DNA of 16,504 bases, from the IMG/VR virus record IMGVR_UViG_3300031853_000538. One strand, given 5' to 3'. The stretch is from a virus. Below, piece after piece: positions 3,398 through 3,823 of the stretch; the first letter of the stretch is position 1; each line of letters opens with the position of its first letter. Under the pieces are notes generated by a model. That model was not told the origin of the DNA and ran no database searches. It saw nothing but the letters and a program-made list of their open reading frames with translations. Made by a program: the position numbers and the translations under genes.

Positions 3398-3823
3398 TTA
3401 AATGAGATAGGGCATTGCCGCCACATATTTATTTTTAAGCTTATCAGTTAGTGTATCAACTTGTGCAAAATGATCGTGTATATCTGCGAGTTTTACAATA
3501 TATGCAGGCATGTATTTAGGATTACTTGCAGCCATTCCACGAATTTTCGCAATATAATCATTATAATCGACATCTTTTTCTTTTGTTAAAAGTTGGAGAT
3601 TTTCTTCAAAATCATAATCAAACCAAGCCCTTTGTTTAATATTTGTATCTTCATATAAATCATGAGCTAAACCGAGTTGATAAACAAAATTATCCCAATT
3701 TGCATAAGGGAGTTTAAAAAGTTTACAAAGATCTTTTGCTTCATTCGCAACTCTTTTTGCATGTTCCATTGTCTTTTCATCATAATAAAGATAGCATAAT
3801 TCAAACATTCCTGTATTTGTCAT
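3398..3823 (-). CDS. HD-domain protein of the Rel/SpoT hydrolase family (Mesh1-like small alarmone hydrolase), 141 aa
   Basis: A complete ORF with a strong SD (AGGAGG) upstream of the ATG at 3823-3821 and a TAA stop. It carries three motifs in the Rel/SpoT order:
- 'EHAKRVA', matching the His-containing 'HPxxVA' motif.
- 'GLAHDLYEDT', matching the signature 'LLHDvvEDT'.
- 'IVKLADIHDH', matching the 'KLADRLHNMR' motif of Rel/SpoT/Mesh1 (p)ppGpp hydrolase domains.
It has no TAG codons. Confidence 0.55.
   Translation of the reverse strand: MTNTGMFELCYLYYDEKTMEHAKRVANEAKDLCKLFKLPYANWDNFVYQLGLAHDLYEDTNIKQRAWFDYDFEENLQLLTKEKDVDYNDYIAKIRGMAASNPKYMPAYIVKLADIHDHFAQVDTLTDKLKNKYVAAMPYLI

Follow-up and report, generated by a model that had tools for sequence, protein, structure and literature searches.

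The window analysed here is the whole 16,504-nt stretch of IMG/VR virus record IMGVR_UViG_3300031853_000538, and the gene in question lies on its minus strand at positions 3398–3823. It is an ATG-to-TAA open reading frame (ORF) for a 141-residue protein, predicted to be an Aph1-like small alarmone hydrolase (SAH) with an HD domain of the RelA/SpoT homologue (RSH) type. A Shine-Dalgarno sequence, AGGAGG, can be read off the same strand at 3831–3836, 7 nt 5′ of the ATG at 3823. The SAH gene is the first of a co-directional cassette free of TAG codons, and 86 nt downstream of its stop codon starts a gene for an 830-residue major-vault-protein (MVP) homologue (819–3311, minus strand). The MVP homologue matches Pfam MVP_shoulder (E 3e-23), and in a PDB search the rat and human MVP chains match it over residues 333–775 (E 1e-10). 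On the plus strand, diverging from this cassette, lies a module of structural genes marked by a giant tape-measure-like ORF (4561–14364; 3268 codons), which can be read through only with TAG taken as a sense codon.

The SAH ORF is a genuine gene and not a chance reading frame, because it has many homologues and its catalytic residues are conserved. A database clustered at 90% identity holds 82 homologues of approximately 140 residues at E≤1e-3, the contigs that carry them reaching 148 kb, and an exhaustive profile search gave 4469 representative clusters at E≤1e-3 and, with the limit tightened to E≤1e-10, at least 270. Members at the stricter threshold came from IMG/VR viral contigs and from genomes of Lachnospiraceae, Blautia and other Clostridia, groups to which the cellular members are almost confined. 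Compared by megablast with 50,697 phage genomes, the window as a whole gave no match, and tblastn of the SAH against these records found only two unannotated metagenomic gut phages; Salmonella phage SSU5, which is present there, was not matched.

In both family and fold, the protein can be assigned with high confidence to the RSH superfamily as a stand-alone hydrolase domain. An earlier note on this DNA, made from its letters alone, had described a stand-alone Rel/SpoT/Mesh1-type (p)ppGpp/(p)ppApp hydrolase HD domain, and PDB searches with family profiles, hhalign and fold searches all agree with it. The assignment is built on profiles and structure; the search of Pfam HD_4 (PF13328) that the note had proposed was negative. 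For the protein itself neither Pfam, HD_4 included, nor NCBIfam returned a family at E≤1, and a phmmer search of PDB with the single sequence was empty; PHROG 990, 'metal-dependent phosphohydrolase', matched at E 4e-7. Among 45 diverse relatives, five reached HD_4 and 26 the generic HD family (PF01966), which was the commonest match. A profile of 30 sequences retrieved Aph1 (7smg, E 2.6e-9), RelSeq (E 5.7e-4) and also Mesh1 from PDB. With a second profile, built from 45 diverse representatives, all 17 matches at E≤0.01 were Rel/SpoT/Mesh1/SAH/Aph chains, among them Aph1 (1e-11), fly Mesh1 (6e-9) and RelSeq (6e-8). Alignment of the family by hhalign scored 97.8% to Aph1 and 96.0% (E 4.6e-9) to PaSpo of SSU5 (SSU5_099), and full-length Aph1 (P0231) used as the query matched single members of the family with E values as low as 2e-10 (database size 2.5e8). 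The closest folds in Foldseek were RSH hydrolases and not other HD enzymes. The predicted structure has eight helices in 141 residues, matching the compact protomer of Aph1, whose family is described as having eight helices in approximately 140 residues, with neither helix 0 nor helix 9 (PMC10083569).

By these comparisons the nearest characterised relative of the SAH is Aph1, and not Mesh1 or SpoT. The label 'Mesh1/SpoT-like' given in the earlier note is therefore right for the superfamily and wrong for the nearest relative; Aph1 scores best, though most of its specificity signature is gone. Identity to Aph1 itself (Bacteroides caccae, 7SMG, PMC10083569) is only 24–29%. The Aph1 family had been retrieved through the C-terminal 53 residues, Y90–E143 (PMC10083569); phmmer with only the C-terminal 54 residues of Aph1 did not retrieve the SAH family. 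PaSpo of SSU5 and PbcSpo of PVP-SE1 are, like the SAH, phage-encoded single-domain RSH hydrolases (PMC7229694). PaSpo is larger (213 residues against 141), is 21% identical over the aligned part, with a relationship detectable only at the profile level, and its gene lies among hypothetical genes and not among RNA-repair genes as in SAH relatives. MESH1 and ATfaRel are more distant in build, with approximately 180 residues, nine or more helices, a full base-binding loop and 15–18% identity to the SAH, and MESH1 is additionally an NADPH phosphatase. The long Rel/SpoT proteins (RelSeq 1VJ7, SpoT 7QPR) carry synthetase and regulatory domains, both of which are absent from the SAH, as is their guanine-binding Arg/Ser loop, and where they have a conserved Asn following the last Asp motif, the SAH has a His. 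One sequence, P0128, was considered as an intermediate between Aph1 and the SAH family, since its N-terminal half resembles Aph1, complete loop included, and its C-terminal half is almost the same as in the SAH family. It was dropped, as it comes from a single 660-bp contig and is more probably a chimera made in assembly than a natural recombinant.

In RSH hydrolases an H/HD/D set of residues holds Mn2+ or Mg2+, and an ED diad activates the water that frees pyrophosphate from the ribose 3′ position; this enzymology is established (Hogg 2004; Tamman 2020) and is summarised in the Aph1 study (PMC10083569). In the translated SAH the motifs occur in order, as H21 (EHAKRV), H54-D55-L-Y-E58-D59-T60, T80-K81 and K111-L-A-D114-I-H-D117-H118, which bears out the three signature motifs, and their order, given in the earlier note. 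The metal-ligand positions H21, H54, D55 and D114 align with those of fly Mesh1, RelSeq and Aph1. The metal-binding His and Asp residues and the ED diad, which the earlier note wanted checked by alignment, are all present, and over 208 full-length relatives they are kept in 205 (H21), 207 (H54), 203 (D55), 204 (E58), 199 (D59) and 208 (D114) cases. Y87, Y133 and K111 are also invariant or nearly so. Judged from these alignments, the catalytic set of metal ligands and the E58-D59 diad is intact, and the four ligands would bind Mn2+ or Mg2+ while E58-D59 would activate the water cleaving a 3′-pyrophosphate.

Among L006 (P0057), P0061 and P0072, one sub-lineage of the same phage clade departs from this pattern, with HD changed to HE, ED to EK (AHELYEKT) and H118 to N; in P0072 the ED has become EN. 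The D66K form of MESH1 is reportedly a catalytically dead mutant. The D-to-K change in AHELYEKT falls at the position of MESH1 D66K, which has been crystallised with PAPS (PDB 9chy). Copies with the HE/EK or EN changes may be inactive or repurposed.

The part of the fold that reads the nucleobase has been altered far more. In Rel, Mesh1 and Aph1 the loop between helices α1 and α2 bears base-contacting residues (PMC10083569), which are R-R/K-S...PY in Rel and Mesh1 and D-K-A (D24-K25-A26) in Aph1; in TtRel, R43, R44 and S45 stack on and hydrogen-bond the guanine (PMC10083569). In every aligned member of the SAH family this loop is seven residues shorter than in Aph1, and in the predicted model helices 2–12 and 15–32 are joined by a turn of two residues. 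Adenine specificity in Aph1 is set by D24, R96, D116, R119, K133 and Y134 (PMC10083569). Two of these, K133 and Y134, are retained as K132 and Y133 of the SAH (K or R in 206/208 relatives, Y in 208/208). D24, for which D15 of the SAH is a candidate stand-in, falls in the deleted loop and D116 within a two-residue insertion that the SAH family lacks, R96 aligns with K93 in a column that is variable and basic in most relatives, and the counterpart of R119 is Q121, a position with R in just 24 of 136 distant relatives. N114 of Aph1, the Asn that follows the last Asp motif, is His118 in the SAH, and this His is kept in 205/208. The alignments thus describe a family, neither canonical Aph1 nor canonical Mesh1, in which the catalytic machinery is retained and the nucleobase-reading part is reorganised.

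The neighbourhood of the gene was surveyed from two sides. The SAH-centred survey reduced 128 loci to 48 lineages at 80% identity and took neighbours within 10 kb, whilst the MVP-centred survey reduced the best 80 (L134–L213) of 136 confirmed loci, a common gene in IMG/VR, to 41 lineages. In relatives of 134–148 kb, a divergent tape-measure gene is followed by the SAH, Thg1-like, MVP, Metallophos, RNA ligase, AAA_33/KTI12 kinase, Metallophos_2, holin and endolysin genes. The window ends before the position where a ligase or kinase gene of the cassette could appear. Of the 48 SAH lineages, nine have Thg1, seven MVP and six Metallophos, while the genes for RNA ligase, kinase and Metallophos_2 are each present in five. 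In the MVP lineages the regular partners are Metallophos_2 (26), P-loop kinase (25), RNA ligase (17) and Metallophos (17), with Thg1 in 13 and SAH in 7. The cassette genes are always co-directional, with an order that is shuffled between lineages, for example MVP-SAH-Metallophos-ligase in L094 and Thg1-MVP-SAH-Metallophos in L073. The 86-nt spacer between SAH and MVP in the window (3312–3397) lacks the Thg1-like gene that separates the two in several relatives, and Thg1-bearing relatives include phages whose MVP is 96–97% identical to that of the window (L002, L005, L006, L016/L134). The close relatives L012–L014 retain the SAH and the ligase and kinase genes and are without MVP, or without both Thg1 and MVP.

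The earlier note had placed the SAH next to an MVP-like gene, co-directional and in the same cassette, and had read the two as a co-functioning pair. The arrangement stands; the pairing looks weak. A specific two-gene system was rejected because co-occurrence is low from both sides (7/48 SAH lineages and 7/41 MVP lineages), and MVP can be missing from close relatives; SAH and MVP are each a dispensable element in a cassette that is variable and RNA-repair-like, and not a dedicated pair. RNA healing and sealing is carried out by systems such as T4 Pnkp plus Rnl and the Pnkp of Clostridium thermocellum. In the cassettes of the relatives, kinase, metallophosphoesterase and RNA ligase are separate genes covering the same three activities, accompanied by a Thg1-like 3′-5′ polymerase. 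Neither an RSH-type hydrolase nor a vault-protein homologue is known from the T4 and C. thermocellum systems. A 2023 preprint reported phage MVPs and did not discuss the function of neighbouring genes; the present work ties phage MVP homologues to RNA-repair genes. Homologues of the window MVP were also seen in the huge phages LR756500, LR756501 and LR756503 (462–735 kb), at 36–37% identity over 98% of its length.

The cassette differs from the divergent module in its use of TAG. The tape-measure-like ORF contains 87 in-frame TAG codons and the plus-strand ORF next to it 12, whereas SAH and MVP together have none in 971 codons, in which approximately 26 would be expected at the rate of the tape-measure ORF. 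The description of SAH and MVP as a standard-code cassette in the earlier note therefore holds. The same is seen in the relatives, where the cassette genes from SAH through Metallophos_2 are free of TAG, bar one codon in an inserted GIY-YIG gene of L002, and none ends on a TAG stop, whilst the tape-measure gene has 69–87 TAG in the loci compared with the cassette. Pfam PhageMin_Tail was found in the relatives' homologues of the tape-measure ORF. The window phage, a gut or rumen phage, resembles the phAss-1 group, which is TAG-recoded, with genomes of roughly 136 kb and tape-measure proteins of approximately 3150 residues.

Taken together, these observations lead us to favour, with moderate confidence, a role for the SAH as an early 3′-pyrophosphohydrolase that reverses the products of toxSAS enzymes. 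As the gene has no TAG, a host machinery still unmodified could translate it, and its expression would probably be early, before the recoding by the phage takes effect. The enzyme would then remove the 3′-pyrophosphate that host toxSAS/RSH enzymes put on adenosine, its substrate being free (pp)pApp and/or A76 of tRNA CCA ends, and ATP pools and translation would be kept running during infection. Strong precedents make such a counter-defence role plausible by analogy. The SAHs that phages PVP-SE1 and SSU5 encode neutralise each of the five toxSAS toxins tested (PMC7229694), and ppApp was hydrolysed by all 12 tested Aph1 homologues (PMC10083569). MESH1 and ATfaRel restore aminoacylation of tRNA modified by FaRel2 (10.1101/2021.04.30.441581), and PaSpo of SSU5 takes off the tRNA modification (PMC11245113). 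We rate a tRNA-end substrate about as likely as free (pp)pApp, because the gene has RNA- or tRNA-end repair neighbours in the relatives and across a quarter of family lineages, and SAHs are known to de-pyrophosphorylate tRNA.

Several points weigh against this role. The protein is recognised by neither Pfam HD_4 nor NCBIfam, and the one pointer to its probable early expression is the absence of TAG. Four of the six Aph1 specificity residues are missing or changed and the base-contacting loop is shorter by seven residues; because the loop is shortened and most of the signature lost, the choice between ppApp, ppGpp and an RNA end cannot be inferred from the SAH sequence. Moreover, approximately three quarters of SAH lineages are not beside RNA-repair genes, and adjoin instead genes for DNA polymerase III alpha, dUTPase, RecD2, RNR activase, FolD and NAD-dependent ligase. 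Such replication and nucleotide-metabolism neighbours fit a nucleotide substrate or a general role in host takeover equally well. At one of these loci (L083, 3865–8286), the DNA polymerase III alpha gene near the SAH-family gene is interrupted by an intein that contains a LAGLIDADG endonuclease.

These same neighbours are part of the case for a (p)ppGpp hydrolase, a mimic of SpoT that would collapse the host stringent response and would not counter toxSAS. The fold and catalytic residues are common to Rel, SpoT and MESH1, several relatives have been named automatically as '(p)ppGpp synthase/hydrolase', and the stringent response is reported to be able to restrict phages (10.64898/2026.01.27.700999). 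We regard this as unlikely, given that the closest relative is the ppApp-specific Aph1 and that 10 of the 12 Aph1 homologues were essentially without ppGpp activity (PMC10083569). In addition, the guanine-binding Arg/Ser loop of TtRel (R43, R44, S45) has no counterpart in the SAH because the loop is deleted.

The RNA ligase, P-loop kinase, metallophosphoesterase and Thg1-like genes of the cassette could also suggest that the SAH is not a pyrophosphohydrolase at all, and acts instead as a phosphoesterase healing RNA ends (the 3′-phosphate or 2′,3′-cyclic phosphate of broken tRNA) or hydrolysing some other adenosine phosphorylated at the 2′/3′ position, for example NADPH or pAp. MESH1 does use NADPH as a substrate (PDB 5vxa; 10.1101/2021.04.30.441581), and Kurata et al. 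note the Pnk-like 3′-phosphatase potential of SAHs (10.1101/2021.04.30.441581). We think this distinctly unlikely, since the one or two metallophosphoesterases of the cassette would already cover end healing and the full HDxxED set typical of 3′-pyrophosphohydrolases is kept.

Aph1 itself provides the model for another explanation, as in a Bacteroides prophage it gives immunity against the MuF-fused toxin Apk1 (PMC10083569), and the SAH could by the same token protect against a (p)ppApp-synthesising toxin of its own phage. Aph1 has its toxin adjacent, whereas in three related phages no RelA_SpoT or Apk-type gene was called within 10 kb on either side of the SAH (approximately 20 kb of each 134–148 kb genome). 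No RSH synthetase turned up among the genes that commonly adjoin family members, and only 0.4% of homologues in the Aph1 study lay near MuF genes (PMC10083569), making an immunity protein very improbable here. The faintest candidate is a YfbR- or DatZ-like enzyme, a generic nucleotidase or dNTPase of the HD superfamily remodelling the nucleotide pool, to which the frequency of PF01966 among relatives, the PHROG 990 match and the replication and nucleotide-metabolism neighbours of many lineages all point, and to which we give hardly any credence.

The counter-toxSAS role can be extended into a more specific, and rather doubtful, proposal, namely that the loop-less SAH family is a dedicated tRNA 3′-end 'de-pyrophosphorylase' and, as such, a component of a modular island for tRNA repair in phages. 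In such an island, the SAH-like enzyme would restore the 3′-OH of A76 after attack by toxSAS enzymes (CapRel, FaRel2, PhRel), the Thg1-like enzyme would rebuild the 5′ ends of acceptor stems, and the kinase, phosphoesterase and ligase would heal and seal cleaved tRNA, with the vault-protein homologue serving as a shell or scaffold for RNA work. The persistent but shuffled linkage of the cassette genes, the tRNA arrays found upstream in some phages, and the adjacency of SAH to Thg1 and to tRNA-Thr are compatible with the proposal and do not prove it. If true, it would provide the first functional handle on non-eukaryotic MVPs.

Phage alarmone hydrolases that disarm toxSAS are already documented, so the novelty does not lie in the concept. 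It lies in a sizeable family, unannotated in Pfam, that has the full catalytic centre and lacks the nucleobase-reading loop of all characterised relatives, together with its recurrent placement beside genes for tRNA and RNA-end repair and for a homologue of the vault protein. This placement offers a testable case of a phage repairing tRNA modified by toxSAS, given the ability of SAHs to de-pyrophosphorylate tRNA.

Links to tRNA were also observed in cellular and viral relatives. In one Lachnospiraceae genome the SAH is followed directly by Thg1. In approximately 11 GTDB species representatives of the Blautia group, a co-directional tRNA-Thr(CGU) lies 56–97 nt downstream of the SAH family gene (L111, L112, L114–L122, L124), whilst in L123 and L125 a tRNA-Gly(CCC) and a tRNA-Thr are nearby on the opposite strand. 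Catalytic residues and short loop alike are kept in the Blautia-group members. FaRel2 has tRNA-Thr and tRNA-Gly as its targets (PMC11245113); the adjacency to tRNA-Thr may be fortuitous, or inherited from one ancestor. Among divergent phages, L070, L073 and L074 have tRNA arrays (Ser, Phe, Gly, Cys, Leu, Lys; approximately 150–4000) 6–9 kb upstream of the SAH/Thg1/MVP cluster. A tRNA scan of the window found no tRNA genes.

An AT-rich divergent intergenic region (3824–4041) separates the minus-strand SAH cassette from the TAG-recoded structural genes of the plus strand and has candidate promoter-like hexamers, including the pair TTGATG-17-TATAAT with an upstream TG at 3913–3885. The promoter scan found 21 such sites in 700–4600 against 17.2 ± 3.9 in shuffled sequence, and with no excess we claim no promoter. 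Just past the MVP stop codon, on the minus strand, is a strong terminator-like hairpin with an 11-bp stem followed by a T run (787–812; AAGGAGGAATT...AATTCCTCCTT). It is the sole such site in the scanned 700–4600, and none lies between SAH and MVP.

Lastly, the identity of the recoded TAG was considered by aligning the window regions 4561–14364 and 14650–16504 (plus strand) with loci L002, L004–L006, L010, L012, L013, L015, L016 and L128–L133. The number of TAG codons in the tape-measure gene ranges from 4 to 87 between relatives, and tRNA scans found no suppressor tRNA in any fetched locus DNA. At well-aligned positions, tape-measure TAG codons face Glu in 41–44% of cases (a 6.8-fold enrichment), Gln in 16–17%, Lys in 11–14% and Asp in 11–13%. 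This profile resembles that of columns with genuine Glu (E 0.55, D 0.12, Q 0.09) and is unlike that of columns with genuine Gln (Q 0.65), which hints that TAG is read as Glu rather than Gln in the late genes and conflicts with the usual reading as Gln reported for the related phAss-1 group. In the protein encoded at 14650–16504, compared with six IMG/VR homologues, the TAG columns in which the remaining sequences are unanimous hold Glu in seven cases and Gln in one.

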